58,576 nt of DNA, from contig JAUSIT010000038.1 of assembly GCA_030647965.1 (NCBI GenBank), positions 1 through 58,576 on the forward strand, given 5' to 3'. Below the pieces are notes generated by a model, which ran no database searches, was not told the DNA's origin, and saw only the letters and a list, made by a program, of their open reading frames with translations. Positions 22,644 through 49,636 of the stretch are shown here, piece after piece (positions within the stretch are counted from its first letter, which is position 1; every line of letters begins with the position of its first letter). This DNA is from Nanobdellota archaeon. Its GTDB lineage: Archaea; Nanobdellota; Nanobdellia; Pacearchaeales; GW2011-AR1. A program made the position numbers and the translations under genes.

Positions 22644-22760
22644 ATTTACTAATTATTGCACTTCGTGGGAATATTAAGTCGACTAAAAAGTTTTGCTCTT
22701 ATCTTTTTCGTTTCTATTTTAAGAGTAAAACTTTTTGCGTCTCCTAAAGATTTATTAATT
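22644..22760 (+). repeat. EL-B copy 1 (H52 module at 22685-22736)
   Basis: ATTTACTAATTATTGCACTTCGTGGGAATATTAAGTCGAC-T-[AAAAAGTTTTGCTCTT..AAGAGTAAAACTTTTT]-GCGTCTCCT...TTATTAATTATT. Confidence 0.7.
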
Positions 22761-22812
22761 ATTATTCTCTTTACTTATTAGATCATATTAATATATTTAT
22801 ATGTTTAAAATT

Positions 22813-22839
22813 AACAGATAATTTATAAATTCTAAAAAA
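22813..22839 (+). promoter_or_regulatory. Duplicated promoter-like box AACAGATAATTTATAAATTCTAAAAAA, ending 12 nt before the ATG
   Basis: TTTATAAA TATA-like core. A near-identical box sits at 23238-23264 with the same spacing to its ATG. Confidence 0.5.
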
Positions 22840-22850
22840 TTCAACATATT

Positions 22851-23072
22851 ATGAATGAAAAAAAAGTAAGCAATCTTGTTAAAGCATTAGAAGATGTAGG
22901 TATAGAACTTGGCGAGCCTATTGAATGTCAAATAAACCCTGAACACACTAAAGCTGTTACAGAATTTTTAAGAAAAATAGAAGACGCACATAAAAGAACA
23001 AGAAATTCTACAATAAAATTTGATAATTATTCAAATAATTCTTCCTATTATTGCACTTCGTCATTATACTAA
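22851..23072 (+). CDS. Hypothetical small protein; C-terminus encoded by EL-B copy 2
   Basis: 73-aa ORF. The last roughly 10 codons (..SSYYCTSSLY) read through the EL-B backbone TTATTGCACTTCGTCATTATACTAA. Confidence 0.4.
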   Translation: MNEKKVSNLVKALEDVGIELGEPIECQINPEHTKAVTEFLRKIEDAHKRTRNSTIKFDNYSNNSSYYCTSSLY

Positions 23073-23228
23073 GTCGCCTATAGGCTCCTAACTATTTATT
23101 AATTAAAATCCATTGAAAAAGTTTTGCTCTTATCTTTTTCGTTTCTATTTTAAGAGTAAAACTTTTTATCGCTAGACTATTATAAGATTCTTGCTTGTTA
23201 AAGCAAACTAATTCAATGCAGTTGTAAG
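23045..23228 (+). repeat. EL-B copy 2 (H52 module at 23116-23167, downstream position)
   Basis: The backbone stem closes directly as AAGTCGCC-TAT-AGGCTCCT. H52 interrupts the ATTG/TCGCTAGAC hairpin. 3' part: TTGCTTGTTAAAGCAAACTAATTCAATGCAGTTGTA. Confidence 0.7.
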
Positions 23229-23237
23229 TTTAATATT

Positions 23238-23264
23238 AACAAATAATTTATAAATTCTAAAAAA
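23238..23264 (+). promoter_or_regulatory. Duplicated promoter-like box AACAAATAATTTATAAATTCTAAAAAA
   Basis: One mismatch to 22813-22839. Ends 12 nt before ATG 23276. Confidence 0.5.
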
Positions 23265-23275
23265 GTTAGTATTTT

Positions 23276-23584
23276 ATGGCTGATCCAAATCAATTAGATT
23301 TATTTAGAGCAAGTGAAGAACTAAAAAGAGAGCAAAAAGAAGGAAGAAATCTTGCTAAATATACTTCTATAAAATATAAACTTCCTGGAAGAACTATATC
23401 TCCTGCAAAAATGAGTAAAGAAGGTTTACAAAATTGGATTGTAGAGTTTGCTAAACTAAATAATATTGACTTACCCAAGGGATTTTATGGAAGAAATAGA
23501 ACCCAAATATTAGGAATGTATAAAGGAATGCAAGAAACTTATAATTTTAGTGATAGAGATATATTACCTAAAAAGAATTATTAA
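23276..23584 (+). CDS. Hypothetical small basic protein
   Basis: 102-aa ORF behind the duplicated promoter box; no motif recognised. Confidence 0.45.
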   Translation: MADPNQLDLFRASEELKREQKEGRNLAKYTSIKYKLPGRTISPAKMSKEGLQNWIVEFAKLNNIDLPKGFYGRNRTQILGMYKGMQETYNFSDRDILPKKNY

Positions 23585-23817
23585 TTTTGTTGTTTTATAG
23601 AAGGTATTAAAACATATATATTTGGTTCAGAAAAAGTATAATTAATTAAATTATATTTTGGAAAAGGATTTGTTGTTTTATTATATATTTGTTCATTTCT
23701 TTGCCCAAAATCAGCCCCTCCTGTATCATCTGGCTCTACAGTAATAGGTTTTATTAAACCACATGAAAAAACTAGTATAGAACTTGCTAGAATTGCTGAT
23801 AAAACCATCTTTTTCAT
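23581..23817 (-). CDS. Small lipoprotein-like secreted protein
   Basis: N-terminal MKKMVLSAILASSILVFSCG (signal plus lipobox-like Cys). Confidence 0.45.
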   Translation of the reverse strand: MKKMVLSAILASSILVFSCGLIKPITVEPDDTGGADFGQRNEQIYNKTTNPFPKYNLINYTFSEPNIYVLIPSIKQQN

Positions 23818-23947
23818 ATAAACTAGAAGAATATTAAGTATTTAAGATTTGTTGTGATGGGTTGTATAAAGATAATCTTTTTAAAGAGGATATAACCTTT
23901 ATTTTAGAGGAGATAGTATCTCAGAAACTTAATTCTGAATAAAAAAT

Positions 23948-24523
23948 ATGGAAGAAAAATATAAAAAACAAGATGAATTGCCAGATTTTCAATTCCCTTT
24001 ATTTGTAGAAGATAGTAACGTAAGAGATATAGATTTAGAGAATAAACTTCCTTTAGAACTATTTTTAAAACATGAAGGATATGAAATAGCTATTAATCAA
24101 AAACAATATGTTTTGTCTATAGATAATTATGAAGATTTTCCAAGAGATTCTTTAAAATTAGAAATTTCAACATTCAGAGGAATGTGTCATGATGCTATTC
24201 ATTTTTATGGATTTCTTGAACTTCCTTTATTAAATTTTAAAGAATTAGAAACTAACTATTTTTGTGGAGGATATGGAATACCTTCTGTGCTTAGGCGCAT
24301 TCAATTACACAGAAGTTTAACTACACAAGAATTAAATTTAAAGAAATATAATGGTTATGAACTTGGAGAAATGATTAATGGATTTAATAGTATTGAAGAT
24401 ATTATTGTTCGTGCAAAAGTTGTTGCAGAAAAATATTTTCAAGGTTTTAAATTAATAACTTCTACTAAAAATATTACAGAAATTAATAAAACAAGCCCTT
24501 TTTTAGATTATTTTAAAGAGTAA
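23948..24523 (+). CDS. Hypothetical protein
   Basis: 191-aa ORF; no motif recognised. Confidence 0.4.
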   Translation: MEEKYKKQDELPDFQFPLFVEDSNVRDIDLENKLPLELFLKHEGYEIAINQKQYVLSIDNYEDFPRDSLKLEISTFRGMCHDAIHFYGFLELPLLNFKELETNYFCGGYGIPSVLRRIQLHRSLTTQELNLKKYNGYELGEMINGFNSIEDIIVRAKVVAEKYFQGFKLITSTKNITEINKTSPFLDYFKE

Positions 24524-24547
24524 AAGATTATATTTAAAAAAGGATTA

Positions 24548-24628
24548 CGCCCAGACTCGGAATTGAACCGAGAAATCCTTGCGGACATGGTGTTCGAGAC
24601 CATTGCAGTACCATTGTGCCATCTGGGC
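24548..24628 (-). tRNA. tRNA-Ser (anticodon CGA), type II
   Basis: Reverse complement folds with acceptor GCCCAGA/TCTGGGC, D loop AATGGTA, anticodon stem ATGGT/ACCAT, loop CTCGAAC, a 14-nt variable arm (TCC-GCAA-GGA), T arm CTCGG-TTCAATT-CCGAG and discriminator G. Confidence 0.85.
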
Positions 24629-24662
24629 TTGAATTGTATTTAATTGATTTTGTTTTTAAAAG

Positions 24663-25160
24663 TTATTTAAACCACTTATAATATTCAAATTGTTCTTGCC
24701 CTTTATGAATAATTAATATTGGAAGTTGAGCTTTTAATCTTTGGTAATTCATTACAATTCTTCCTGTTCTTCCATTTCCATCTTCAAAAGGGTGAATTTT
24801 CAAAAGTTTTATATGGGCTTGTTTTATATTTTCTTCTTCTTTAGGGTTTGAGTATTCTTCAGCCCATTTTGAAAGTTCTTTTTGAATTAATTCAGGCTTT
24901 AGACATTCTTCATACCCTATTTGACTATTTCCAACATAAATTGGACACCTTCTAATTTTTCCTGCAATTAAAGGGTTTATTCTTTTCATTAAATTTTGAT
25001 GAATTTCTTTAATAAAAGGAATGTTTATAGGTTCTTTGTATTCTTTTGCAAAACACCATGTAGAAACAGCATCTTCTAATGCGCTGTTAGAATCTTCTTT
25101 TTCAATCCAGTTAGAATGTTGTAAAAATTCAAATTCTTGTTGAGATATATTAATTTTCAT
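24663..25160 (-). CDS. Fic/DOC family protein (short form)
   Basis: Canonical Fic motif HPFEDGNGRTGR. Confidence 0.8.
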   Translation of the reverse strand: MKINISQQEFEFLQHSNWIEKEDSNSALEDAVSTWCFAKEYKEPINIPFIKEIHQNLMKRINPLIAGKIRRCPIYVGNSQIGYEECLKPELIQKELSKWAEEYSNPKEEENIKQAHIKLLKIHPFEDGNGRTGRIVMNYQRLKAQLPILIIHKGQEQFEYYKWFK

Positions 25161-25210
25161 AAGTTAATGAATAATAAGAACTTTTTAAAATGTTTTAAGA
25201 TTGGTTTAAG

Positions 25211-25642
25211 TTACTTCGACTCTGGTTTTTCAGAATTTGCTTGAAATCTTGGAAAGCTAATATGATAGGGAAGCCCAAAATCATCCTCTAATTGTAGTGC
25301 TTTTAATGAACATTTTTGTAAGATAGTATTTAGAATAATTATTCTTAATTTATCTGGAACTTGTTTAAGATCTTTCCATTGAGTTAGTGTTTCTTTTGAA
25401 AGTTGATCATCTACTAAAAATATTAAAAAACCTTCAAAATAAATATTAGCAAAATTAGTATAGTCAAGAGTAAATTTAAAATCAAATTTTAAAGCTTCTT
25501 TATCAGTAAAATCTAATTTATTTTTTTCAACAGAAGTTATATTTATATCTGATTTTGCTTCTAATTTTCCTTTAAAATCAGGAAATTTTTTTACATTTAG
25601 ACTAGTATATCCAAAACCTAAAAATTTTATTTCTTGTTCCAT
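25211..25642 (-). CDS. Hypothetical protein upstream of Fic (weak SecB-like pattern)
   Basis: 143-aa ORF. The C-terminal ILNTILQKCSLKALQLEDDFGLPYHISFPRF loosely recalls the SecB C-terminal region; this is not a supported assignment. Confidence 0.35.
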   Translation of the reverse strand: MEQEIKFLGFGYTSLNVKKFPDFKGKLEAKSDINITSVEKNKLDFTDKEALKFDFKFTLDYTNFANIYFEGFLIFLVDDQLSKETLTQWKDLKQVPDKLRIIILNTILQKCSLKALQLEDDFGLPYHISFPRFQANSEKPESK

Positions 25643-25682
25643 TTTTAATTGAATAATTGAGGTTTTTTAAAGTTTGTTGTGA

Positions 25683-25778
25683 TTGAAATTAAAATCAGCA
25701 AAATTATATTCAATTTTAAATAATAGAATTTTAATTTCAGAGCATCCCAAAAACAAAGAGTAGTTTTCATTGTTTTTC
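25683..25778 (+). repeat. HP-A composite repeat
   Basis: TTGAAATTAAAAT...ATTTTAATTTCAGAGCATCCCAAAAACAAAGAGTAGTTTTCATTGTTTTT. Confidence 0.55.
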
Positions 25779-25850
25779 TGATGTTTGAAAAGAAAATAAT
25801 CTAATAGAATTACTTTTAATTAAAACAAAAATAATTTTAAAAAATTTTAT

Positions 25851-26111
25851 TTATACTAAATCTTCTTCAGAAATAACTACAAAATCACCTATTGCTACTA
25901 AAGCATGATAAGGTATTAAAGCTTCTTTTTCAGCTGTTCTTTCTAAACTTAGATTAGTTGTATAAGGTGTTAGGTCTTTTATAACCATATGAATCAATTC
26001 GCCACTTTTTGTTTCAAAAGTGATATCTTTGATAAAACCTAGTTTTTTACCTTCTTTGGTAACAACTTGTTTTCCCACCATAGCCCTAAAGGGCTTCTTT
26101 TCTATAACCAT
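25851..26111 (-). CDS. PRC-barrel domain protein
   Basis: MVGKQVVTKEGKKLGFIKDITFETKSGELIHMVI...ALIPYHALVAIGDFVVI is a typical PRC-barrel pattern. Confidence 0.6.
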   Translation of the reverse strand: MVIEKKPFRAMVGKQVVTKEGKKLGFIKDITFETKSGELIHMVIKDLTPYTTNLSLERTAEKEALIPYHALVAIGDFVVISEEDLV

Positions 26112-26223
26112 ATAAAATTTAAATGGAAACTGTTTATAAATGTTTCTGTAATAAATTCACTATATTAAAAAAACAATGTGTTATTCACATTTTTAAGTGT
26201 GAATTTAATAGATATTTGTTTTT

Positions 26224-26305
26224 AGGACCTCAATAATTATTAATTCTTGATGGCTTCAATAAGGTAAATTCTTGATAGTGCTCAAGATTTTATAATCTTA
26301 ATATA
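26224..26305 (-). repeat. Cluster of three degenerate HP-A hairpins
   Basis: GGACCTCAA..., GCTTCAA... and GTGCTCAAGATTTTATAATCTTAAT are reverse-orientation feet (GTGCTC/GGACCTC = reverse complement of GAGCAC/GAGGTCC). Confidence 0.45.
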
Positions 26306-26335
26306 CTCTGAAATTTAAACTAGTAAGCTCACAAT

Positions 26336-26510
26336 AAAAAATCCCAATCACAGCAAGTTGTGGGGTATTTTTTAAATGTCAAAAATTTACGAATTTTTGA
26401 GCACACTCCAAAACAAAATTCTTCAAGGAGAATTTTTCAAAGTTTTGGATGCCTCCAAATGGGAACGACGAAAATTGTAGCAAGCTAAGAAGTATAAGAC
26501 CCATTTGCAG
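26336..26510 (+). ncRNA. RNA-C copy 2
   Basis: Collinear with 8077-8236. The HP-A hairpin at 26376-26404 carries a compensatory G:C to A:T change. The terminal helix is CAAATGGG/CCCATTTG. Confidence 0.4.
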
Positions 26511-26665
26511 TAATCAAATTTTAGAGTAAACATAATTTCGGACATTAAAAAAAGATATTAATTTTTAAAAAATGTTCTTTTTAATTTATTTTTAAAGGTT
26601 ATTTTTCAAATTATTGATTTTTTTAGGTAAAATAGGTTAATATTTAATTAATTATCTTTAATTCT

Positions 26666-26735
26666 TGTCAAGAACCCTCGGAATAAATTCCGGGGCGTGT
26701 CTCGGGTTCTTGAGCACCCTAAAAATTGTTTTTTC
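26666..26735 (+). repeat. HP-A hairpin with a GC-rich arm
   Basis: TGTCAAGAACCC-TCGGAATAAATTCCGGGGCGTGTCTC-GGGTTCTTGAGCACCCTAAAAATTGTTTTTT. Confidence 0.55.
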
Positions 26736-26874
26736 TTACTGTTGAAAATCTTCCAATTAGATTTTTAATCACTATCAGAAACTCCTGTTTCTGAAGTCGC
26801 GAACTAAAGTAGGGAGTTTGCGAAAAACAATTTTTTTGGTATCAAAAAGAGGTAATAATCTCTATAAAATAGCC

Positions 26875-27220
26875 TAACCCCTCACCCTATGGTTTCTTAT
26901 GGAAAAGATTTATAAAGGAATTTCAAAATTGAAAATGTTGAATTTTTATTTATAAATATATATATTATATATTATATATATTAATATATAATATAATATA
27001 ATAATATATAATTAAGTATCTATATTTTAATTTTTTAAATTTTTGTTAATTTTTTACGTCAGTATATTTAGTAAATTACTAATAATACTACTTTAATACA
27101 CTTATTTTTTAAAATAATATTCTAGATATGAAATAAGGGGGTGAGGGGTTGCTAAATATTTTTATTAGTTAAAATAAGTAAAAAAGAGCTATTTTAAGTT
27201 CCATATGAAATAAAGGTTAG
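26875..27220. other. Candidate replication origin (oriC): inverted ORB-like boxes flanking an AT-rich unwinding region
   Basis: 26875-26907 TAACCCCTCACCCTATGGTTTCTTATGG is an inverted match to 27125-27152 GATATGAAATAAGGGGGTGAGGGGTTGC. A mini-box CCATATGAAATAAAGG sits at 27201-27216. (TA)n-rich tract at 26941-27120. Directly upstream of orc1/cdc6. Confidence 0.6.
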
Positions 27221-27299
27221 TTAAGTATATTTTCTTATATAACAATATTTAAATATAAATCAATTATTTAATAGATTAGTTAATAAAAGGGATAAAAAA

Positions 27300-28517
27300 A
27301 TGGTGATAGGACTAGATAAAATATTCAATTCTGCAATAAATAACACTTTATTTAAAAATAAAGAGGTTTTACAGACAAATTATACTCCTGAGTCAATACC
27401 TCATAGGGATAAACAAATAGAACAGATTGCAGGGATATTAGCTCCTTTATTAAGAGGTGAAAGATGTAGTAATTTATTTTTATATGGTAAAACTGGCACA
27501 GGAAAGACTCTTTCAATGCAATATGTTCAAAATGAATTATTAAGAAAAGCAAAAGAAATGGGATTAGAATTAAGAATAATTTATTTAAATTGTAAATTAA
27601 AAAAAGTTTCAGACACAGAATATCGGATTTTAGCTGCTTTAATAGGTAAATTAGGTAAAGAGGTTGCTGCAACAGGATTACCTACTGATCAAGTTTATTC
27701 TAAGTTTATTGAGATAATCGATGAAAAAAAACAATTGGTTGTTATTATTTTTGATGAAATTGATCAGGCTATTAAAAAAATTTCAGATAGTTTTTTATAT
27801 AATTTAACTAGGTTAAATTCAGAACTATCTAAATCTCAAATAAGTATTATAGGTATTTCTAATGATATTACTTTTTTAGAAGATATAGATCCTAGAGTAA
27901 GAAGTTCTTTAGGTGAAGAAGAACTTGTATTTCCTCCTTATAATGCATTACAATTACAAGATATATTAAATGAAAGATGTGCTATTTCTTTTAAAGAAAA
28001 TGCTGTTGATGCAGGAGTTATTGCAAAATGTGCTGCTTATGCTGCAAGAGAGCATGGGGATGCAAGAAGAGCTTTAGATTTATTAAGAATTGCAGGAGAA
28101 CTTTCTGAAAGAGAGGGAAATTCTAATGTTGGATTGAAATATATTGATTTAGCTAATGATAAAATGGAAAAAGACAAAATTTTAGATATTGTTGAAACTC
28201 AACCTAAACAATTTCAACTTGTTTTATATGCTATTTCAGAATTAACAAAATCTCAAAAAAATAATAAAGAATTAAATAAATTTTTTACAGGAGATGTTTA
28301 TGATGTTTATAGGGATATTTGCATTAAAACAAAAAATGAGTATTTAACTCAAAGAAGAATTTCTGATATTATTGCTGAAATGGATATGTTGGGTTTGATA
28401 AATGCTAAGGTTATTTCAAAAGGGAGACATGGTAGAACTAGAGAAATAAAATTTGCAATACCTATAGGTTTATTTGATAAAATTGATGCTATTTTAAAAG
28501 AATCTTTAGGTTTGTAA
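27300..28517 (+). CDS. cdc6: Orc1/Cdc6 replication initiator
   Basis: Walker A GKTGTGKT, Walker B IIFDEID, sensor region GDARRALDLL and a C-terminal winged helix. Confidence 0.9.
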   Translation: MVIGLDKIFNSAINNTLFKNKEVLQTNYTPESIPHRDKQIEQIAGILAPLLRGERCSNLFLYGKTGTGKTLSMQYVQNELLRKAKEMGLELRIIYLNCKLKKVSDTEYRILAALIGKLGKEVAATGLPTDQVYSKFIEIIDEKKQLVVIIFDEIDQAIKKISDSFLYNLTRLNSELSKSQISIIGISNDITFLEDIDPRVRSSLGEEELVFPPYNALQLQDILNERCAISFKENAVDAGVIAKCAAYAAREHGDARRALDLLRIAGELSEREGNSNVGLKYIDLANDKMEKDKILDIVETQPKQFQLVLYAISELTKSQKNNKELNKFFTGDVYDVYRDICIKTKNEYLTQRRISDIIAEMDMLGLINAKVISKGRHGRTREIKFAIPIGLFDKIDAILKESLGL

Positions 28518-28539
28518 TTAAATTATTATACTTTTAACA

Positions 28540-30117
28540 ATGGAAAAAACAATCTTAAAAATTTGTATGGAGAAAGGTTTTTTATTAGATAAAGAGATGT
28601 TAAACTTACTTTCTGGATTAGATGAAGAGAGTGCTAAAAAATTAATTGAAAGCATTGTCAGCTTAAAATTTGAAGAAAAGGTTATAACAAAGACTTTTTT
28701 TTCAAAAAATCTTCAAAAAATTCAAGAAGTTTTAATTGATGGAAAAAATAAGACAGTTATTGAAAATCTGTTTTTTAATTTAGGTTATTCTAGAACAGAA
28801 ATTGAACAAAAAGAAGTAAGAAAAGAAGAAAAAGTAGAATTGATTGAAGAAAAACAAGGAAAAGTTAAATTATTATCTGTTTCGTTTGTTCCTCCTAAAA
28901 AAGTATGTGTTGCTGATTTTGTAAAACATTATAGAACAAGGTATGAACAAATTAAAAAAATACTTTTAGAAAGAAATTTAGATAATTTAACTTCTTTAAG
29001 GAAAATAGGGGATAAAAAAGAAAATTATACTATTATTGCTTCTGTTTTTGATAAAAGAATAACTAAAAATAAAAATCTTTTACTTAATGTTGAAGATTCT
29101 AGTGGAAGGGCAAGAATTTTAATAAATGCTAATAAAAAAGAGGTTTTTGATAAGGCTAAAGATCTTTTATTAGATGATATTGTTGCATTTCAAGTTTCTG
29201 GAAATAAAGAATGGCTTTATGCTAATGATGTTATTTTTCCTGATTGTGTATTGCATGAAAAGAAAAAATATGAAAAAGATGAATGGGTTGCTTTTAGTTC
29301 TGATGCTCATATAGGTTCTACTATGTTTTTAGAGGAAAATTTTAAAAAATTTTTAGAATGGCTTAATGGTGAAAGAGGGGATGAAAAACAAAAAGAAATT
29401 GCTAAAAAAGTAAAATATTTATTTTTAGTTGGAGATTGCATTGATGGTGTGGGAGTTTATCCTGATCAAGAGAGATTTTTAAATATTAAAAATATTAAAG
29501 ATCAATATAATAAACTTTCAGAATTTTTAAGATATTTAAGAAAAGATATTAAAATTATTTTATCTCCTGGGCAGCATGATGGTGTGAGAGTTGCAGAGCC
29601 TCAACCAATTGTAGAAGAGTCTTGGGCTCCTGAATTACATAAAATAGAAAATTTGACTTTGGTTCCAAATCCTGCTTTAGTTGAAATAGATGGGGGATTT
29701 AAAATTTTAATGTATCATGGAGCAAGTATGCATAGTATTATTGATGAAATTGAAGATATAAGATTAAATTATAAATCAAATTCACCTACAAGGGTTGTAA
29801 AAGAAATGTTAAAAAGAAGACATTTAGCTCCGACTCATAGTTCTGTTACATATATTCCTAATGAAAAAGAAGATCCTTTGTTAATTACACAAATTCCTGA
29901 TATTGTTGCAACAGGGGATTTGCACAGGCCTGAAATTTCTATTTATAATAATATTTTATTAATTGCATCTTCTTGTTGGCAGTCAATTACTCCTTTTGAA
30001 GAAAAAGTAGGCAATCATCCTGACCCTTGCAAAGTTCCTTTATTTAATTTAAAGACAAGAGAAATTAAAATAATAGATTTTGGAGACACTAAAGAAGATA
30101 AAGGAGAGGAAAAATGA
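28540..30117 (+). CDS. DNA polymerase II (PolD) small subunit DP1
   Basis: OB-fold region followed by calcineurin-like phosphoesterase motifs (SDAHIGS, VGDCIDG, PGQHD, YHG, TGDLH). Confidence 0.85.
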   Translation: MEKTILKICMEKGFLLDKEMLNLLSGLDEESAKKLIESIVSLKFEEKVITKTFFSKNLQKIQEVLIDGKNKTVIENLFFNLGYSRTEIEQKEVRKEEKVELIEEKQGKVKLLSVSFVPPKKVCVADFVKHYRTRYEQIKKILLERNLDNLTSLRKIGDKKENYTIIASVFDKRITKNKNLLLNVEDSSGRARILINANKKEVFDKAKDLLLDDIVAFQVSGNKEWLYANDVIFPDCVLHEKKKYEKDEWVAFSSDAHIGSTMFLEENFKKFLEWLNGERGDEKQKEIAKKVKYLFLVGDCIDGVGVYPDQERFLNIKNIKDQYNKLSEFLRYLRKDIKIILSPGQHDGVRVAEPQPIVEESWAPELHKIENLTLVPNPALVEIDGGFKILMYHGASMHSIIDEIEDIRLNYKSNSPTRVVKEMLKRRHLAPTHSSVTYIPNEKEDPLLITQIPDIVATGDLHRPEISIYNNILLIASSCWQSITPFEEKVGNHPDPCKVPLFNLKTREIKIIDFGDTKEDKGEEK

Positions 30118-31103
30118 GAATAAAAGATGAAATTTATGGTGAAGAAGAAATTAATGAATCTTATTTAGTAGAATTAATTAATTCTCCAAGTATTCAAAGA
30201 CTTAAAGGGATTTCAATGGGAATGCCTCAAGAATATTATCACAAACCAATTTATTCAAGATACGAACATTCTGTAGGAGTTTTAGTTTTATTAAGAAAAT
30301 TAAAAGCTGATTCTAAAGAGCAAATTGCTGGTTTGTTACATGATATTTCTCATACTGCATTTTCTCATGTTATTGATTGGGTTATAGGAGACCCAACAAA
30401 AGAAGATTATCAGGATAATATGTTCTTAGATTTTATTAAAAATTCAGAAATTCCTTCTATTTTAAACAAATATAATTTTAATTATAAGAAATTTTCTAAC
30501 CTTAGTAAATTTTCTTTATTGGAAAAAGATGCCCCCAGTTTATGTGCTGATAGATTTGATTATTCTATTAGGGAGATTAATTGGAATGAGGGAAAGGATA
30601 TTACAGAAATGATTGTAAAGGATTTAATAAATCATAATAATAATATGGCTTTTAATTCTAAAAAAATTGCAGGAATATTTGCTAAAGGATACTCTCATTG
30701 TAATAGTGAACACTGGGCAGGTGATGAGGCAAAAGCTAGATATTATCTTCTTGCAAAAATTTTAAAGAGGGCATTATTAAAAAAGATTATATCTATAAAT
30801 GATTTAAGAACATTACAAGATTATTCTATTATTAATTTGTTGGTTGAAAATAAGGATAAAGAGATTTTATATCATCTTCATTTATTAAAAGATAATTTTA
30901 TTATTAAAAAGGTAGAATCTTATGAAGAAGGAATAATTCTGAAAAAAAAATTTAGATATGTTGACCCAGAAGTCTTATTAGACAATACTATTGTTAGATT
31001 ATCTGATATTTCTCAAACATATAAAACTTTATTAAATAAATTAAAAGAAGAATCAGAATTAGATAATAAAATTATTATAGGAGGGGTTAAAGTAGAATTA
31101 TAA
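30114..31103 (+). CDS. HD-domain phosphohydrolase
   Basis: YEHSVGV...GLLHDISHTAFSH (H..HD). ATGA overlap with DP1, and ends 2 nt before DP2. Confidence 0.7.
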   Translation: MRIKDEIYGEEEINESYLVELINSPSIQRLKGISMGMPQEYYHKPIYSRYEHSVGVLVLLRKLKADSKEQIAGLLHDISHTAFSHVIDWVIGDPTKEDYQDNMFLDFIKNSEIPSILNKYNFNYKKFSNLSKFSLLEKDAPSLCADRFDYSIREINWNEGKDITEMIVKDLINHNNNMAFNSKKIAGIFAKGYSHCNSEHWAGDEAKARYYLLAKILKRALLKKIISINDLRTLQDYSIINLLVENKDKEILYHLHLLKDNFIIKKVESYEEGIILKKKFRYVDPEVLLDNTIVRLSDISQTYKTLLNKLKEESELDNKIIIGGVKVEL

Positions 31104-31105
31104 AA

Positions 31106-36555: not shown

Positions 36556-36577
36556 GTTTTTAAGATTAGAATTTATT

Positions 36578-37219: not shown

Positions 37220-37222
37220 TTT

Positions 37223-37435: not shown

Positions 37436-37623
37436 TTTTTTCTTTTTTTCTTTTTAGATTTAGTTATATTTGATTTTGATTTATATTCATTAAAAATAAT
37501 TAATCCAATTCCTGCGATAGTTATAATCATTGAAGCAAAGATATAAGAATTTGATGCTAAAATATAAAATATTGCACCTAAAATAACTAAAATTATTCCT
37601 AAACAAACAATTAATTTAGACAT
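37432..37623 (-). CDS. Small membrane protein with a poly-Lys tail
   Basis: 63 aa, two hydrophobic helices, C-terminal KSKKKKRKK. Confidence 0.4.
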   Translation of the reverse strand: MSKLIVCLGIILVILGAIFYILASNSYIFASMIITIAGIGLIIFNEYKSKSNITKSKKKKRKK

Positions 37624-37682
37624 TTATTTTTTAAGAGATTTAGGATTATAAATCTGTTGGTGTTGGGAATTTTCTAGATAAG

Positions 37683-37995
37683 ATATTTACTAATTATAGC
37701 ACTTCGTTCTGTTAGAAAGGTTTCATCAGCATTTCTGAGCACTGTCAGGAATTTACATTCCTGAAGCCATCGAGAATTCTTAATTCTTGAGGTCCTAAAA
37801 TTCCAATATTTATATACATGAATTTTTTGATTATAAGAAGTCACCTAGAAAAAGTTTTGCTCTTTTATCTTGCGTTACTTATGCAAGAGCAAAACTTTTT
37901 GCGGTTCCTGATTAGTTATTAATTAATTGTTAAAATTGTCGCGAGACAATCATAATATCTTTGCTTGTTAAAGCAACTATTTCCATGTAAATTGC
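37683..37995 (+). repeat. EL-B copy 3 (H52 at 37849-37900), carrying a nested roughly 125-nt insertion rich in HP-A hairpins
   Basis: The backbone ATTTACTAATTATAGCACTTCGT is interrupted at about 37710-37835 by ..CATTTCTGAGCAC, TGTCAGGAATTTACATTCCTGAAGC and GAGAATTCTTAATTCTTGAGGTCC. It resumes as AAGAAGTCACC-TAG-[H52]-GCGGTTCCT...ATTGTCGCGAGACAAT...TTGCTTGTTAAAGCAA. Confidence 0.7.
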
Positions 37996-38002
37996 TTTTT
38001 TC

Positions 38003-38182
38003 TTATACTACTGGTTTTCGTTTTCTTGGTTTATTCCAGTAAGGAGATTTGCATTTAGGGCATATAATTGGAAGAGTATTGATATTTTGCTTGTTTCTAG
38101 GAACCCATTCATGATTACATCTTTCACATCTAAATCCTTTTAGCTTTATTTCTATTTCTGCAATATTCTTACCTTTTCTATT
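38003..38182 (-). CDS. Possible zinc-ribbon mini-protein without a canonical start codon
   Basis: The open frame reads NRKGKNIAEIEIKLKGFRCERCNHEWVPRNKQNINTLPIICPKCKSPYWNKPRKRKPVV. It has two CxxC pairs but no in-frame ATG, GTG or TTG. Confidence 0.25.
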   Translation of the reverse strand, partial: NRKGKNIAEIEIKLKGFRCERCNHEWVPRNKQNINTLPIICPKCKSPYWNKPRKRKPVV

Positions 38183-38459
38183 TTATATAATATTAAATTA
38201 AGTTTCCCTTTATAAACTTACCTACTAAGTAATACCTTTAATAGATATGTTTATAAAGATATATTTACTAAACTATATATCTTATAAGTATAGTTTACTT
38301 GAGAGATTTATAAGTTTTTCTCAATACTTATATAGATGAAGATATTGATGATAAAATGAAAAAAACCTTGGGAATAAGGTTTTTAGTATGCAAGAAAATT
38401 CAAGGAATTTTCTGCCCCTGAAAATCTATCGATTTTCAGTGGTTCAAAATTAAAAATTT

Positions 38460-39218: not shown

Positions 39219-39232
39219 ATAATAATCTTTTT

Positions 39233-39283
39233 ATGTCAGAAATGCTGTTAAAGTTGTGGCATTTCTGAGCATCCTAAAAACAA
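39233..39283 (+). repeat. HP-A hairpin between convergent genes
   Basis: ATGTCAGAAATGCTGTTAAAGTTGTGGCATTTCTGAGCATCCTAAAAACAA. Confidence 0.65.
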
Positions 39284-39290
39284 AAAGTAT

Positions 39291-40178: not shown

Positions 40179-40246
40179 ACTAATATTATCTAGTTAATTT
40201 TGTTTTTAAAGTTTGTTAGATTGTTAAGGAAACCTATTAAATTGAG

Positions 40247-40429
40247 ATTTACTATTATTATACTTCGTAGGAATATTAAGTTGCCTAGAAAAAGTTTTAC
40301 TCCCCTATCTTGCGTACTCATTGCAAGAGCAAAAGTTTTTGCGGCTCCTTTCGATTAATTAATATAAATTGTCGCTAGACAATTATAATATTCTTACTTG
40401 TTAAAGCAAACTATTTCAACGCAGTTGTA
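40247..40429 (+). repeat. EL-B copy 4 (H52 at 40289-40340)
   Basis: GATTTACTATTATTATACTTCGTAGGAATATTAAGTTGCC-TAG-[H52]-GCGGCTCCT...ATTGTCGCTAGACAAT...CTTGTTAAAGCAAACTATTTCAACGCAGTTGTA. Confidence 0.7.
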
Positions 40430-40445
40430 TGTCTCTATAGATTTT

Positions 40446-41651: not shown

Positions 41652-41718
41652 TGAAAAATATAGGAAATATTTATATATATGGATTGTTATAGTTTTTTAT
41701 TATTCAAGGAGTAGATAG

Positions 41719-44025
41719 ATGAAACATATTAAAAATTATTTTATATTTTTTACAGTGTTAGTGTTTTCTTTATTATTTGTTATTGCAGAAGATGTTTCTA
41801 CAACAACTACTGATTTAGGAAATAGTGTAACTTCTTCAGTTGATAATTCTCAGGTAGTTCAATCAGATGAAACTAATTTAGCAACTTCAACAACACAATC
41901 AGAAACAGATAGTGCAACTTCAACAACAGAGTTTAATGTTGATGCTGGATTAACTCCTGATAGTCCGTTTTATTTTATTGATAATCTTGCTGAACAAGTT
42001 ACAGTTGGTAATAATCCTGAGAAAGCATTAGATGCTCAAGAAGAGAAAATTGCAGAAGCACAGATTATGGTTGAAGAAGGTCGAACTGAAGAAGCTAAAC
42101 AAGTTTTAGACAAAGCATTACAATATGGAGATATTGTTGAAAAAGAAGCTTCTCCTGAAATGAAACAAAGAATTCAAGAAAGTTCTCAACAAGTTCAAGA
42201 TGTTTTAATTGAAATGAAAAAAGATACAACTGATGAAAAATGGAAAGATGTTAATGATGGATTTGATGAAAATATTGCAAAAGAAAAAACAATGCAAAAA
42301 GCTTCTGAAATTGCATCAAAAATAAAAGAGCTTTGTAATACTCTTGCTACACTTGACCCTATACAATATGCTGATTCATGCGGTTCAAAAACAAATTCTC
42401 CTAAATGGATGAAAGAACAAGATAAGATCTTGACTAAAGAACAAGAACAACAAGCAACAATTTTCTTTGATAAATTATCTCAGTGTTTTGAAACTCCTGA
42501 CAAATGTGATTGTAATGGGATGGGTGTTCAGAGTTTTCAAGATTTTTGCATTGAAAAAAGTTCTTTAGCAGTAAAATGTAAACAAGGTGACAAAGATTCT
42601 TGTACTAATTTTAAGTCAGGGTCAGATCCTACAGAATTACTTCCTGATTATTTAATTCCTATATTTAAAAAAGTTGAATCTAAATATATGAAGGCCGAAT
42701 TTGATACGTATATGCCAGAAGAGTGTTTAAAAGCAGGAGCAAAAACTGCTGAAGAATGTAATAAAGTTATGTTTCAACTTAATGCACCTAAAGAATGTTT
42801 AGAAGCAGGTTATACTGGGAAATCAAAAGAAGATAAAATTAATTGTAATCAATTAATGTTTAAACAAAATGCTCCTAAAGAATGTCTTGATGCTGGAATA
42901 ACTTCTGAAGATCCAGATGCTCCTAGAAAATGTGCAAAATTAATGTTTACAACAAATGCTCCTCAAAAATGCCTTGATGCTGGTTTGACAGGAGAAAATA
43001 GTAAAGATGATAAAAAATGCAGAGAATTAATGCAGGGACAAGAACAGCAAGGGCAACAAGGACAACAATCTTTAATGCCTAAATTTAATAGAGATTGCAA
43101 AGCTATATCTGATACAACTGAAAAAATGAAATGTTATGAAGAATTTTATAATAACGCTCAGGTTCAGGTAAAAGATGAATTTAGGCAAGTAATAGACCAG
43201 AATACTGGGGAGACAATATCTCCTGAAGAAGAAAAATCAAGACAAGAGTGCAAATCCAAAGGAATGGGAACTATTTTAGAATATAAATATGGGAAAAGAA
43301 TAATAATTTGTGTTAATGGAAATGAAGCTGGTTCAAATGGGCAAAGATGTCAATCACAACAAGAAACAGAAAACTTAAAACAAGATTGTAAATCAAGAGG
43401 GCAAGATGCAAAAGTTGAAATTCGTGGTGGATGCCCTTGGGTAATTTGTGTTAGTGGACAGCAAATGCAACAAGCTCAACAAATGCAACAAGCCCAACAA
43501 AATTCACAAGAGCAATTTAATCCTTATGGAAGTTATAATCCTTATATAAAAGAAGATAGATATGGACAAAAATGTCCTGATGGAATTTGCGATGCTGCTG
43601 AAAAAGCAGATGCTTATTTATGCCCTATTGATTGCGGTGGGGCAGGAATGCAACAGCCTCAACAAAATCAACAGCCTCAACAAAATATTCAACAACCTTC
43701 ACAAACACAAAATTGTCAGGAACCTCATCCTGATTGTCCTGGAGCATTTCCTTATTGCCAGAATGGAAATTGGATATGCCCCTCTTCACAGACTCAACAA
43801 AATCAACAACCAATACAACAACCTCAAATTGTAACACCTCCACAAACAGATACAACAACTCAACCAGCAACAAATTCTCCTGCAACAACAGAGCAAACTC
43901 AACAACAACCAGCAACTCAAGAGCCTGCACCCACAACTAGTTCAACAACATCTGGGGGAAGTGGTGGAGGAGAAGTAGCACCTATTACTGGTGCAGTTAT
44001 TTTTTGGAATTATTATTATAATTAA
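41719..44025 (+). CDS. Large secreted Cys-rich / Gln-rich surface protein with tandem repeats
   Basis: Signal peptide; DUF5667-like LTPDSPFYFIDNLAEQV; four roughly 31-aa repeats NAP(K/Q)(E/K)CL(E/D)AG..C..LMF; a poly-Q/T/P stalk; short C-terminal hydrophobic tail. Confidence 0.6.
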   Translation: MKHIKNYFIFFTVLVFSLLFVIAEDVSTTTTDLGNSVTSSVDNSQVVQSDETNLATSTTQSETDSATSTTEFNVDAGLTPDSPFYFIDNLAEQVTVGNNPEKALDAQEEKIAEAQIMVEEGRTEEAKQVLDKALQYGDIVEKEASPEMKQRIQESSQQVQDVLIEMKKDTTDEKWKDVNDGFDENIAKEKTMQKASEIASKIKELCNTLATLDPIQYADSCGSKTNSPKWMKEQDKILTKEQEQQATIFFDKLSQCFETPDKCDCNGMGVQSFQDFCIEKSSLAVKCKQGDKDSCTNFKSGSDPTELLPDYLIPIFKKVESKYMKAEFDTYMPEECLKAGAKTAEECNKVMFQLNAPKECLEAGYTGKSKEDKINCNQLMFKQNAPKECLDAGITSEDPDAPRKCAKLMFTTNAPQKCLDAGLTGENSKDDKKCRELMQGQEQQGQQGQQSLMPKFNRDCKAISDTTEKMKCYEEFYNNAQVQVKDEFRQVIDQNTGETISPEEEKSRQECKSKGMGTILEYKYGKRIIICVNGNEAGSNGQRCQSQQETENLKQDCKSRGQDAKVEIRGGCPWVICVSGQQMQQAQQMQQAQQNSQEQFNPYGSYNPYIKEDRYGQKCPDGICDAAEKADAYLCPIDCGGAGMQQPQQNQQPQQNIQQPSQTQNCQEPHPDCPGAFPYCQNGNWICPSSQTQQNQQPIQQPQIVTPPQTDTTTQPATNSPATTEQTQQQPATQEPAPTTSSTTSGGSGGGEVAPITGAVIFWNYYYN

Positions 44026-46694: not shown

Positions 46695-46707
46695 GTTGAA
46701 TAATAAT

Positions 46708-46840
46708 TATTTACTATCTTCTCTAAGAAGATATAATGCACTTCAAAAAGTTTTGCTCTTCTATCCCTCGTTACTTATTGTAAGAGCAAAACTTTTTCGT
46801 GGGAATACTAAGTCGCCTGTCGGCTCCTAACTTTTATTAT
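46708..46840 (+). repeat. EL-B copy 5 (H52 at 46745-46797, upstream position)
   Basis: ..ATAATGCACTTC-[H52]-CGTGGGAATACTAAGTCGCC-TGT-CGGCTCCTAAC. H52 lies between GCACTTC and GTGGGAATA, and the backbone stem closes directly. Confidence 0.7.
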
Positions 46841-46957
46841 CTTGGATTGATATTGCAGTGATAAAACTTTTAACATTATTAATGGATAGTTAATCTTCGC
46901 CAGAAGATTCCATTAATCTTATGATAATATAATAATTTTCCATTTATCTAACCAATC

Positions 46958-47899
46958 TTATTTTGTCTGAAACTCAATTATATCTTTGTCTTTTAATACA
47001 TGACTTAGGCCTACTTCCTGTCCGCCAAACTTAGATGATGGGCCCCAGATTCTAGCTCTTTTGATTTTTTTTGAAAATCCTTTTAGTATTTTTTCTGCAA
47101 CATCTTTTATTGTTGAGTTTTCTTTCATAATCATTGGTTCTTTACTTACTTCTTTTTTTGGCTCTTTTGTGTAAATTCTTATTATTGTAAATGTTTTGAA
47201 TATTTTTTCTTTTAATTCAGCAAGATTTTCATGGTTTATTGAGGAAAATAAGATAAAACTATGTTTTTTTGATTTAAGGGTTTCTGTGATTTTTCTTTTT
47301 TCATTTTCATTAAATAAATCTGTTTTATTAAATAAAATAATTATTTTTGCTCTTGTTTTTTGCAAAAATTGTTCTGATTGTTTTATTTGGTCAAAATTAT
47401 TAATAATTAAAAGAATTGTATCTGTTGTGTTGATTATTCCTCTATCTGTGTTTGGAAAAGGAGGCATATCTACTAATTGAATTTTTAAATCTTCATAATT
47501 CATCATACCTATTTTAGGGATAGTTGTTGAATAAGGATGTTCTGTAACTTGTAATTTTAATCCTGTTAGTAAATTAAAAACAGAAGTTTTTCCTGTATTT
47601 GGGAAACCTAAAATTAGTGCTTGCATTTCTGATTTTTTTATTCCTACTTTTGTTGATTTTGAAGATTTTGAAGTTTTTTCAATTTTTTCAACAAGTTTTT
47701 TATACCTTAGTCTTAAAGCAGCTCTTAGATTCTCACCGCCTTTATGAGCTGGGGCATAAGAAATCATTTTTTCAAGTGCTAAAAGTTTTTCATCTAGTGT
47801 TTTTGTTTGCAGGTATTCTTTTTCAGCATGACCATATTCAGGGCTTGCATTAGTTGTCATATGTTTTTTAAAGGAATTTAACTTAAAAAATCTATGCAC
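46958..47899 (-). CDS. DRG/Obg-family GTPase with a TGS domain
   Basis: G1 GFPNTGKTS, G4 NKTD, C-terminal TGS-like region ..IWGPSSKFGGQEVGLSHVLKDKDIIEF. An alternative start is Met14 at 47860. Confidence 0.75.
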   Translation of the reverse strand: MHRFFKLNSFKKHMTTNASPEYGHAEKEYLQTKTLDEKLLALEKMISYAPAHKGGENLRAALRLRYKKLVEKIEKTSKSSKSTKVGIKKSEMQALILGFPNTGKTSVFNLLTGLKLQVTEHPYSTTIPKIGMMNYEDLKIQLVDMPPFPNTDRGIINTTDTILLIINNFDQIKQSEQFLQKTRAKIIILFNKTDLFNENEKRKITETLKSKKHSFILFSSINHENLAELKEKIFKTFTIIRIYTKEPKKEVSKEPMIMKENSTIKDVAEKILKGFSKKIKRARIWGPSSKFGGQEVGLSHVLKDKDIIEFQTK

Positions 47900-47936
47900 T
47901 TAGGAGTTTTATTTTATAACTTAAATTTTTTAGAAT

Positions 47937-48137
47937 TTAATAAACATCTGAAGAAGTTTGATCTGTATTAGGTTTTTTATCTGTATTGGGTTTTTCGTTT
48001 GGAGAATCATATTTATTATACTTTGCAGTCATTTGTTCTAATACTCCTTTTGTTCTAAAATCTATATCAGACATTTCAGATAATGCATAACGTTCTGCCA
48101 TTCTTGCATGATATAAATAGTTACCTAAATTTGTCAT
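47937..48137 (-). CDS. Hypothetical small protein
   Basis: 66-aa ORF; no motif. Confidence 0.3.
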   Translation of the reverse strand: MTNLGNYLYHARMAERYALSEMSDIDFRTKGVLEQMTAKYNKYDSPNEKPNTDKKPNTDQTSSDVY

Positions 48138-48296
48138 TCTTTTTTTTAGAAATCTTTATTTATAATGTTTTAGATAAACTAATATAGTATTTTACACTCC
48201 TCAAATTATTAATTCAATTAAATCTTAGAATTTTTTATTAAATGTTCTTGTTCTCTTTAACAAATACCTTAAAAACTTGTTATTTCTATTTTTTTT

Positions 48297-48965
48297 ATGA
48301 AACTAGGAGTTTTATTTTCAGGTGGAAAAGATAGTATGTATGCTGCTTATTTGGAAAAGAAAAAAGGCAATGAATTAACTTGCTTAATTTCAATATATTC
48401 TGAAAATAAAGAGAGTTTTATGTTTCATACTCCTTCTATTGAAAAAGTTGAAAAACAAGCAGAGGTTATGGAGATTCCTTTAGTTATTTGGAAAACAAAA
48501 GGAGAAAAAGAAAAAGAGCTTAAAGATTTAGAAGAAGCTATAAAACATGCTAAAGAGAAGTATAAAATAGAAGGGATTGTAACTGGGGCTTTACGAAGTG
48601 TGTATCAAACAGAAAGAATTCAGAAAATCTGTGATAAATTAAAATTAAAATGTATTAATCCTTTATGGCAGAAAGATGAGTTTGAATATTTAGATGAGCT
48701 TTTGAAAAATAAGTTTAAGGTAGTTATTGTTGGAGTTTTTGCTTATCCTCTAAATGAAAAATGGCTTGGAAGAGAGATTGATAAAAAGTTTATTGGAGAT
48801 GTTAGAAAGCTATATGAAAAATATAAAATTCATCCAGCCGGGGAGGGGGGAGAATTCGAGTCATTTGTTTTAGATTGTCCTTTATTTAAAAGGGCTTTGA
48901 AAATAACTGATAAAAAAATATCTGGGGCTGGAAATAGCTGGAAAATTGAGATAGAGGTTGAATAA
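48297..48965 (+). CDS. PP-loop ATPase of the MJ0570 / diphthine-ammonia ligase (Dph6-like) family
   Basis: PP-loop LFSGGKDS and the EGGEFES motif. Confidence 0.75.
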   Translation: MKLGVLFSGGKDSMYAAYLEKKKGNELTCLISIYSENKESFMFHTPSIEKVEKQAEVMEIPLVIWKTKGEKEKELKDLEEAIKHAKEKYKIEGIVTGALRSVYQTERIQKICDKLKLKCINPLWQKDEFEYLDELLKNKFKVVIVGVFAYPLNEKWLGREIDKKFIGDVRKLYEKYKIHPAGEGGEFESFVLDCPLFKRALKITDKKISGAGNSWKIEIEVE

Positions 48966-48988
48966 TCTCTTAATAATTATGTTTTTTA

Positions 48989-49114
48989 ATGTCAGAAATT
49001 AAACTGCATCATTTATGATGTAGACGTAACCTTAGTGCGTTAATTTCTGAGCATCCTAAAAACAAGTGCCAATCAAACCCACACTTTTAAGTGTGGGTGG
49101 CACATTGTTTTTTT
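48989..49114 (+). repeat. HP-A composite repeat (long foot hairpin, second hairpin, T7 run)
   Basis: ATGTCAGAAATTAAACTGCATC...GCGTTAATTTCTGAGCATCCTAAAAACAAGTGCCAATCAAACCCACACTTTTAAGTGTGGGTGGCACATTGTTTTTTT. Confidence 0.7.
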
Positions 49115-49372
49115 GATACAATTAGCTTTTATATTGCTGATTTCATTTGCAGTAGCTTTGGCAAAATTCTTTAAGTCTTTTACATCTTCAGCAGTACTAT
49201 CAAGTTTATGCATTGCCCACCCCGCTAAATATACTACACCAAAAAGAGGGGCATATTCTAATAATAATGGTGTATTAATAACTCCTAGGGTTTTTAATAT
49301 AATCCAGATTAAAATTCCTCCTAAAACAACCCATGCCAATATATCCCAGGCATTTATTCCTCTTTTATTCAT
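49073..49372 (-). CDS. Small membrane protein; C-terminus encoded by repeat sequence
   Basis: Two TM helices. The last roughly 14 codons (KKTMCHPHLKVWV) lie in the second hairpin of the repeat at 49073-49114. Confidence 0.45.
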   Translation of the reverse strand: MNKRGINAWDILAWVVLGGILIWIILKTLGVINTPLLLEYAPLFGVVYLAGWAMHKLDSTAEDVKDLKNFAKATANEISNIKANCIKKTMCHPHLKVWV

Positions 49373-49441
49373 AAAAATATATGTCTTTGAGATTTATATA
49401 TTTTATACTTTCTCTATCTGTTAAATAAATTGACGAACTTT

Positions 49442-49636
49442 ATTTTTACTGATTATTGCACTTCGTTAAAATACTAAGTCGACTTGAAAAAGTTTTACTC
49501 TTCTATCTTGCGTACTCATTGCAAGAGCAAAACTTTTTGCGTCTCCTAATTAGTTATTAATTAATTACTTCTTGATTGTCGCTAGACAATCTTAATATCC
49601 TTTGCTTATTAAAACAAACTATTTCAACATAGTTTT
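49442..49636 (+). repeat. EL-B copy 6 (H52 at 49487-49538)
   Basis: ATTTTTACTGATTATTGCACTTCGTTAAAATACTAAGTCGAC-TTG-[H52]-GCGTCTCCT..TTATTAATTAATT..ATTGTCGCTAGACAAT..TTGCTTATTAAAACAAACTATTTCAACATAGTT. Confidence 0.7.

Follow-up and report, generated by a model that had tools for sequence, protein, structure and literature searches.

Distribution and Structure of H52 and EL-B

We analyzed a 58,576-nt contig (JAUSIT010000038.1, assembly GCA_030647965.1) of a Nanobdellota archaeon of the Pacearchaeales, which carries six copies of a short palindromic module, H52, each nested in a copy of a longer repeat, EL-B. The whole stretch of 58.6 kb is called the window below, and all genome-level counts rest on it alone. 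The GC content of the window is 27% (25-29%). Five short hairpins with AT-rich linkers, among them an invariant ATTAATTAA, make up EL-B, a repeat of approximately 130-170 nt. Its six copies all lie on the plus strand, in intergenic DNA:

22645..22790, plus strand: EL-B copy 1, only the 5' half present, with H52 copy 1 inside (nhmmer E = 1e-10)
23040..23235, plus strand: EL-B copy 2, full length, hairpin 2 unoccupied (GCC-TATA-GGC; E = 4e-36)
37805..38010, plus strand: EL-B copy 3, full length, most divergent backbone
40247..40440, plus strand: EL-B copy 4, full length
46725..46860, plus strand: EL-B copy 5, 5' half, hairpin 2 unoccupied (GCC-TGTC-GGC)
49445..49645, plus strand: EL-B copy 6, full length

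Each EL-B copy holds exactly one H52, always in the same orientation, at one of three sites (A, B, or C):

22685..22736, plus strand: H52 copy 1, site B in the hairpin-2 loop of EL-B copy 1, junction GAC-T|H52|GC-GTC, 63.3 bits
23116..23167, plus strand: H52 copy 2, site C in the 5' strand of EL-B hairpin 3, junction ATTG|H52|A-TCGCTAGAC
37849..37900, plus strand: H52 copy 3, site B in the hairpin-2 loop, junction ACC-TAG|H52|GC-GGT, 65.8 bits, z = -4.9
40289..40340, plus strand: H52 copy 4, site B, decayed, with four stem mismatches, 50.5 bits
46745..46797, plus strand: H52 copy 5, site A in the EL-B hairpin-1 loop, junction GCACTTC|H52|C-GTGGG, 67.5 bits
49487..49538, plus strand: H52 copy 6, site B, junction GAC-TTG|H52|GC-GTC, 65 bits

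The two-arm pattern AAAAGTTTTRCTC-N16-30-GAGYAAAASTTTT matched these six sites of the window only and had no match in shuffled sequence, and a fuzzy search of the window allowing up to three mismatches per arm found nothing beyond them. With an unfiltered covariance model of 31 H52 sequences, the six sites scored 50-67 bits, always higher on the plus strand, while the next-best match in the window reached 19.5 bits (E = 0.28). These scans bear out the original prediction, made from the letters of the sequence, that H52 occurs at six sites, one per EL-B copy, and nowhere else in the window.

The module is built of 16-bp inverted arms, AAAAAGTTTTGCTCTT, around a variable loop of about 20 nt, usually with one extra G, and each arm contains an internal near-palindrome, AAAAGTTTT. 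The A5 and T5 runs that had been described as flanks of the stem are instead its outermost pairs. Copy 1 folds as a 17-bp hairpin (z = -4.5). In the decayed copy 4 the long hairpin is not the minimum-energy fold (z = -1.9 on the plus strand and -0.8 on the minus strand).

Alignment with the H52-free EL-B copies of a related contig showed that the three insertion positions are genuine and not alignment artefacts. The backbone segment GGCTCC...ATTAATTAA...ATTG lies 5' of H52 in copy 2 and 3' of it in copies 1, 3, 4, and 6, and in copy 5 even CGTGGGAATA comes after H52. As predicted, the covarying 3-bp stem closes without H52 in copies 2 and 5, with TATA and TGTC loops, respectively, and H52 caps it in copies 1, 3, 4, and 6. 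The left junction proved not to be uniform, since that of copy 1 (GAC-T|H52) is unlike that of copies 3, 4, and 6 (given as GAC-TTG|H52).

EL-B as the Host Repeat

EL-B hairpin 2 shows compensatory changes (GAC/GTC, GCC/GGC, ACC/GGT, GAT/ATC), as does hairpin 4 (TTGCTT/AAGCAA vs. TTGTTC/GAACAA). Against Rfam 15, no more than one tRNA reached the gathering score in the window, and neither EL-B nor H52 matched; the related contig with two clean EL-B copies (L030) gave nothing below E = 3. EL-B often lies 50-70 nt upstream of a same-strand gene, once a tRNA, and a TATA-like box appears to precede it. A seventh EL-B candidate at 15533-15552 (GCCTAGCGGC) was rejected as an unrelated small hairpin.

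The syntenic relatives that we compared share 66-76% amino-acid identity with this genome, and their spacers (about 8-45 nt) contain neither element. At the locus of copy 5, the orthologous spacer between the OB-fold and GTPase genes is just 16 nt in the relatives. At the locus of copy 6, the M16 peptidase gene has an upstream spacer of 8-45 nt in the relatives, without EL-B or H52. Because these spacers are short and lack EL-B, EL-B itself is a lineage-specific insertion. The closest homologues of the M16 peptidase are labeled Pacearchaeota, Nanoarchaeota, or "archaeon"; since the best of them is only 76% identical, the host is a DPANN archaeon to which the databases contain no close relative. 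Most of the unusually long intergenic spacers of this origin-proximal region are accounted for by H52 and EL-B together, which is of use in annotation.

The sequences that follow EL-B copies 1 and 2 (22790-22894 and 23215-23319) are 70% identical over about 105 nt, a stretch that takes in a TATA-like TTTATAAATTCTAAAAAA box and the start codons. The small open reading frames (ORFs) behind them (73 and 102 aa) were considered as paralogues and rejected, as they have no detectable protein similarity.

H52 as a Discrete Unit Within EL-B

H52 copies 1 and 2 are identical at 52 of 52 positions, yet they occupy different EL-B sites and their host backbones are 78% identical. Each pair of H52 copies is more alike than the corresponding pair of hosts (0.74-1.00 vs. 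0.62-0.84). Between copies 3 and 6 the H52 identity is 0.91, although no backbone diverges more than that of copy 3; the backbone of copy 1 is nearest to that of copy 6, but the H52s of these two are just 0.79 identical. Divergence within H52 amounts to 6.5% in the arms and 31% in the loops, which is the usual pattern where only copies with intact terminal repeats propagate.

The original prediction had proposed aligning EL-B relatives to map occupied and empty sites, and both kinds were found. Contig L030 carries two full EL-B copies (361-490 and 1079-1210) that are free of H52, with the loops GAC-TGGC-GTC and GAT-TAGC-ATC, and its own H52 sits elsewhere in the contig, outside both. The EL-B of L024 has site B empty and site C filled, and H52-free EL-B 5' halves lie in L036 (about 1504-1567, minus strand) and L019 (about 600-640). 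Compared with unoccupied EL-B paralogues, the insert is a precise block of H52 plus one base (52-53 nt). These comparisons show that H52 is a discrete unit, dispensable for EL-B and incongruent with its EL-B hosts, and that it behaves as if younger than they are.

Because the left junction of copy 1 differs from those of copies 3, 4, and 6, about four independent insertions were counted in the window (at least three to four), all of them in EL-B. EL-B makes up approximately 9% of the non-coding DNA of the window and contains 11 of its 53 non-coding GC-rich islands. A mere preference for GC-rich islands was considered in place of an EL-B preference and rejected, as it explains part of the pattern only.

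The H52 Family in Other DPANN Contigs

The arm pattern retrieved two DPANN metagenome-assembled genomes (Woesearchaeota and Nanoarchaeia) and 30 metagenome contigs. With those of the window, the distinct H52 copies number 37, with unrelated flanks and in contigs of 27-37% GC. Their lengths range from 51 to 59 nt, and 98% of the stem cells are paired across 31 copies; one diverged copy keeps its stem by compensatory changes (GCTCTT/AAGAGC to CATCTT/AGGATG). Copies unlinked to EL-B were found in many contexts of other DPANN contigs. The strong preference for EL-B holds within the window and fails as an exclusive trait of the wider family.

The three EL-B sites are reused elsewhere: site B in L026 and L027, site A in L036, and site C in L024, where the H52 at 2315-2367 occupies the site of window copy 2 with a different loop. 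In L041, H52 lies two to three bases 3' of site A in the opposite orientation. Outside EL-B, H52 occurs in several further repeated contexts and in tRNA gene 3' fragments (L014, 6974-7150; L038, 2380-2490; L043, 480-600, minus strand; L020, 215-345). In each of these four contigs the T-stem/acceptor junction of the fragment coincides with H52 or is no more than a few bases away from it. An intact tRNA lies directly upstream of three of the fragments, and a nearby 5' acceptor strand is missing from all of them; L020 contains no intact tRNA within its 1.3 kb. In three of the tRNA-fragment contigs, a reverse-complement copy of the T-arm precedes the fragment, e.g., GGAATTGAACCC-AA-GGGTTCAATCCCC, forming a palindromized T-arm.

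No H52 lies in convincing coding sequence, the two overlapping ORFs being of low complexity and apparently spurious, and the genes adjoining H52 are housekeeping genes. A megablast of positions 22000-42000 against a phage collection and a pattern scan of IMG/VR gave no viral matches. A first, looser pattern had matched Oscillospiraceae sequences; these are ordinary hairpins (AAAAGTTTTACTCGA..TCGAGTAAAACTTTT) unrelated to H52.

Two further features of the family were observed. In L025 (1-130), L026 (2200-2320), and L027 (1150-1260), H52 lies between an EL-B 5' part and an apparent inverted EL-B 5' start (GCNGYAGCWCAATATT); such double EL-B flanks are expected if two H52 copies at different sites recombined. 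In addition, the stem pair 11/47 (e.g., 22695/22726 and 49497/49528 of the window) is hypervariable, with GC in 16 copies, GU in 4, AU in 3, CG in 1, and A·C in 7. The changes always equal C-to-T within GAGCAAAA on either strand, and the pair could be a deamination or methylation hot spot.

Junctions and Target Signature

Of 39 junction pairs, 24 have G..G or C..C as the bases next to H52, where 4.7% would be expected (p = 1e-22), as do 18 of 26 contexts judged independent by eye. Orienting the copies by their loop gives 14 cases of G..G and 4 of C..C. Once junctions are oriented to read G, a G occupies position -1 in 27 of 31 cases and position +1 in 24 of 31, and positions -5 and -4 are rich in C. 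The 16 flanking bases are about 55% GC, in genomes of roughly 30% GC, and the loose target consensus is CC-T-K-G|G-N-G. In L038 and L043, two extra G are possible at the junction. The idea that H52 always caps a host stem was rejected; it holds for EL-B hairpins 1 and 2 and not generally, the flank complementarity being 2.8 pairs vs. 3.0 at random positions.

A 106-nt repeat occurs at 8104-8209 and 26367-26472 (91% identical), the second copy lying in the origin region. Just upstream of that copy, AATCCCAATCACAGCAAGTTGTGGGG|TATT (26341-26375) resembles the left flank of H52 in L023, L029, and L039 and may be an unoccupied H52 site. Between this repeat and the H52-bearing GCAAGCTGCGGG contigs, the left flank alone looks similar, which is no more than suggestive.

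Other Features of the Window

The window also codes for ribosomal proteins and other housekeeping genes, and for the following archaeal replication proteins:

27300-28517: Orc1/Cdc6
28540-30117: PolD small subunit
31106-36064: PolD large subunit with a LAGLIDADG intein

The PolD large subunit has 1652 aa here vs. 1158 aa in two relatives (L047 and L048), for which no intein domains are listed. A presumed replication origin lies at 26870-27155, directly upstream of cdc6 (27300). Its inverted boxes, AACCCCTCACCC (26876) and GGGTGAGGGGTT (27139), enclose an extremely AT-rich stretch of about 120 nt (26940-27060).

A minus-strand cluster of mobile-element-like genes at 11713-19254 may be an integrated element. 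It also contains helix-turn-helix proteins and four tandem small ORFs (13763-15458) with a common 43-nt repeat, in addition to the following genes:

11713-12021, minus strand: HNH endonuclease
12005-12853, minus strand: tyrosine recombinase (Xer-like)
12908-13399, minus strand: zinc-ribbon/HNH-like protein

Two neighboring ORFs at 4198-5059 (minus strand) have a "Recombinase" domain fragment and a zinc ribbon, with no resolvase catalytic domain reported for either; the pair resembles what is left of a large serine recombinase.

A second palindrome family, unrelated to H52 in sequence, occupies 49054-49118, 53396-53460, and 57718-57782, with a fragment at 14719-14737. It has the form AAAAACAAGTGCCA..CCCACAC-TTTTAA-GTGTGGG..TGGCACATTGTTTTTTT and ends in an A run and a T run; two of the copies are 97% identical. 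A 27-nt direct repeat, TTTTTGGGATGCTCCGAAATTAAAACC, is present in four copies of 78-100% identity (3494-3520, 14751-14777, 16334-16360, and 58186-58212).

Proposed Nature and Movement of H52

H52 is probably a miniature non-coding palindromic mobile element, similar to miniature transposable elements with inverted repeats (MITEs) and repetitive extragenic palindromes (REPs), which belongs to a DPANN family and uses EL-B as a favored landing pad here. Of the two readings in the original prediction, that of a mobile palindrome gains support from the incongruence with the hosts, the absence of H52 from complete EL-B copies, and its many contexts outside EL-B. As H52 encodes no enzyme, it would be copied in trans. 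The mobilizing protein probably recognizes the conserved arms or their hairpin and would insert the element beside a G where the local sequence is GC-rich (approximately CC-T-K-G|G-N-G). EL-B would offer such GC-rich sites within an AT-rich, gene-dense genome, and H52 would for this reason have come to be nested in the loops of hairpins 1 and 2 and the stem of hairpin 3. Transposition would take place at the DNA level, and the enzyme may be a single-strand HUH-type protein cutting 3' of a G, or a nuclease with a 1-nt stagger. A strand-specific HUH-type cut 3' of a G would fit the junctions, and no such gene was found here; such a cut is hard to square with copies that share one orientation to either side of the presumed origin. 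If H52 affects transcription, for instance by ending it early at the T5 run, this would be a by-product of insertion.

Several points weigh against this interpretation. No orthologous pair of filled and empty sites was found, as the closest database relative stands at 76% protein identity and lacks EL-B. Short-tract gene conversion between pre-existing H52s, with the arms serving as homology, could in principle have made the H52s of copies 1 and 2 identical. GC-rich islands alone do not account for every event having hit EL-B. The public copies were fetched by a pattern that fixes the arms, so that arm conservation across lineages is partly built in. A 1-nt duplication of G (possibly 2 nt, in L038 and L043) fits no transposase family known to us. 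Finally, searches of the window and of 56 ORFs adjoining H52 in other contigs turned up no autonomous element or transposase with matching ends.

If H52 is such an element, the presence of the same arms in Woesearchaeota-, Nanoarchaeia-, and Pacearchaeota-like genomes and the repeated insertion at identical positions, a few bases wide, of a second repeat would mean that even these carry active miniature parasites. DPANN genomes are among the smallest and most gene-dense cellular genomes, and their mobile DNA is little known. H52 is a compact and easily searched marker for finding the mobilizing enzyme, and its G|G junctions, together with its repeated association with tRNA 3' fragments, give a handle on the disruption of small RNA genes in archaea.

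Alternative Explanations

A more far-reaching possibility, which we regard as unlikely, is that H52 is the first known sequence-directed "hairpin hopper" of DPANN archaea, moved by an enzyme of a type new to such repeats: a 52-nt element inserted at G|G in RNA-gene-like GC-rich motifs, with EL-B hairpin loops and tRNA T-stem/acceptor junctions among its targets. Or else H52 would leave transcripts by a route other than a bulge-helix-bulge (BHB) motif, as an archaeal intron of a new kind. The palindromized T-arm copies beside H52 may be footprints of such a mechanism.

It is quite unlikely that H52 is kept by selection as a bidirectional terminator or insulator module and not by selfish mobility. 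The original prediction had remarked on its likeness to a bidirectional oligo-T terminator, and termination may occur as a side effect. Archaeal RNA polymerase terminates at oligo-T, and the form A5-stem-loop-stem-T5, the stop codons found 10-30 nt from H52 in several contigs, and the second family of palindromes with A and T runs in the window (49054-49118, 53396-53460) would agree with such a role. However, the gene ends that face H52 show no 3' bias (28 3' vs. 29 5'), and 3 of the 20 fully flanked copies lie between divergent genes. The T5 run is not distinctive, since one strand of the window has 487 runs of T5 or longer, and a scan for bacterial-type terminators does not flag H52. A terminator would also leave unexplained the identical arms across lineages, the G|G junctions, and the nesting in EL-B.

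We consider it very unlikely that H52 is the binding palindrome of a cellular DNA-binding protein (a regulator, recombinase, or nucleoid protein) that was spread by recombination. The strong conservation of the arms and the near-palindrome AAAAGTTTT within each of them would suit a binding site, and the window encodes both the Xer-like tyrosine recombinase (12005-12853) and the serine recombinase remnant (4198-5059). Nevertheless, the copies lie at unrelated positions relative to genes, H52 is absent from the syntenic loci of relatives, and the insert is a precise 52-53-nt block compared with unoccupied paralogues. Moreover, the 20-nt spacer is variable and copy 4 is decayed.

Another proposal, highly unlikely in our assessment, is that H52 is an archaeal intron spliced by proteins, or some other insert that is lost from the RNA, and has transposed among positions of a structured EL-B RNA and into tRNA genes in the manner of the mobile non-canonical tRNA introns of Thermoproteales. 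Excision would be carried out by the broad-specificity splicing endonuclease of DPANN archaea. DPANN archaea do possess endonucleases that cut non-canonical introns (PMC3239211, PMC5829648). Four contigs carry H52 at or near the T-stem/acceptor junction of a tRNA-like sequence, the EL-B hairpins covary, and hairpin loops make up two of the three insertion sites. The junctions lack BHB geometry: they are directly opposed at the foot of an unbroken 16-bp stem, where a BHB intron (hBHBh' or a relaxed form) would have two 3-nt bulges with a 4-bp helix between them. A helix between exon and intron is impossible; the ends of the 5' exons (e.g., CCTAG and CGTGG) are unable to pair with the terminal A/T runs of H52, and the flanks pair like random positions (mean 2.8 vs. 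3.0 pairs). The stem mismatches are not specific to one strand: the variable pair is A·C in 7 copies and G·U in 4, where pairing kept on a transcribed strand would tolerate G·U and avoid A·C. The tRNA-like hosts amount to 3' fragments without a nearby 5' acceptor strand, three of them just downstream of an intact tRNA, and the hairpin of copy 4 has decayed.

The second reading of the original prediction, in which each EL-B requires one H52 as a peripheral arm of its RNA (e.g., a protein-binding hairpin) with a flexible attachment point, is almost certainly wrong: all six window copies do hold exactly one H52 in the same orientation, with arms far better conserved than loops, but complete EL-B copies (two in L030) and 5' halves (L036 and L019) exist without H52, many H52 hosts are not EL-B, copy 4 has lost its hairpin, the truncated EL-B copies 1 and 5 still carry H52, and the T5 run within the module is a likely stop signal for archaeal RNA polymerase.

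Comparison With Known Systems

H52 appears to be undescribed, although the MITE/REP-like class is known. Full-text literature searches with DPANN repeats, introns, and the arm sequences returned only unrelated primer matches, and the size, single-G junction, targets, and hosts of H52 are matched by no described family.

The palindromic GC-rich clusters and double-hairpin elements of fungal mitochondria (PMC4478555) and the palindromic elements of Rickettsia are, like H52, very small palindromic inserts in AT-rich compact genomes, with intergenic and structural RNA gene targets and no known enzyme. The sequences and organisms are unrelated to those of H52, and the mitochondrial clusters are themselves rich in GC; H52, by contrast, is AT-rich and inserts at GC-rich places.

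The mobile non-canonical BHB tRNA introns of Thermoproteales (PMC4090602) are also short hairpin inserts at several positions in small structured RNA genes, including near the T-arm, and they are archaeal, with related copies at different sites. Unlike these introns, H52 has no BHB, its hosts are EL-B and tRNA 3' fragments in place of intact tRNAs, and its mismatches are not specific to the RNA strand.

REP and REPIN palindromes of bacteria resemble H52 as extragenic hairpins with two inverted conserved arms and a short variable spacer. They are mobilized in trans by REP-associated tyrosine transposases (RAYTs), which are IS200/IS605-like Y1 HUH transposases, without a long target duplication (PMC3733652), and the same would hold for H52. 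The G bias of the H52 junctions (14 G..G vs. 4 C..C) would fit a strand-specific cut beside a defined base, as in REP/RAYT systems. The GTAG/CGTC head of REPs was not found in the H52 flanks, which show only the G at -1 and +1. No RAYT/TnpA or other Y1 transposase family was among the Pfam matches of the scanned ORFs of the window, and to our knowledge RAYT systems have been described in bacteria and not in DPANN archaea. In addition, the lagging-strand bias of REP/RAYT systems would predict something other than the shared orientation of the H52/EL-B copies on both sides of the presumed origin.

MITEs of bacteria and archaea, such as SM of Sulfolobus and Correia of Neisseria, differ from H52 (52-57 nt) in being typically far larger, the whole of H52 being one hairpin, and in having a fixed target duplication of 2-10 bp where the H52 junctions appear to repeat a single G (perhaps GG); a parent insertion sequence with the same ends as H52 was not found in the window or the 56 adjoining ORFs. 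Like H52, they are short, non-coding, multi-copy, and intergenic, with terminal inverted repeats, conserved ends, and a variable interior, and they nest in other repeats and are present or absent among homologous sites. H52 shares with MITEs the short, non-coding, multi-copy form, the terminal inverted repeats, and the filled and empty homologous sites, which in its case are those of paralogous EL-B copies.

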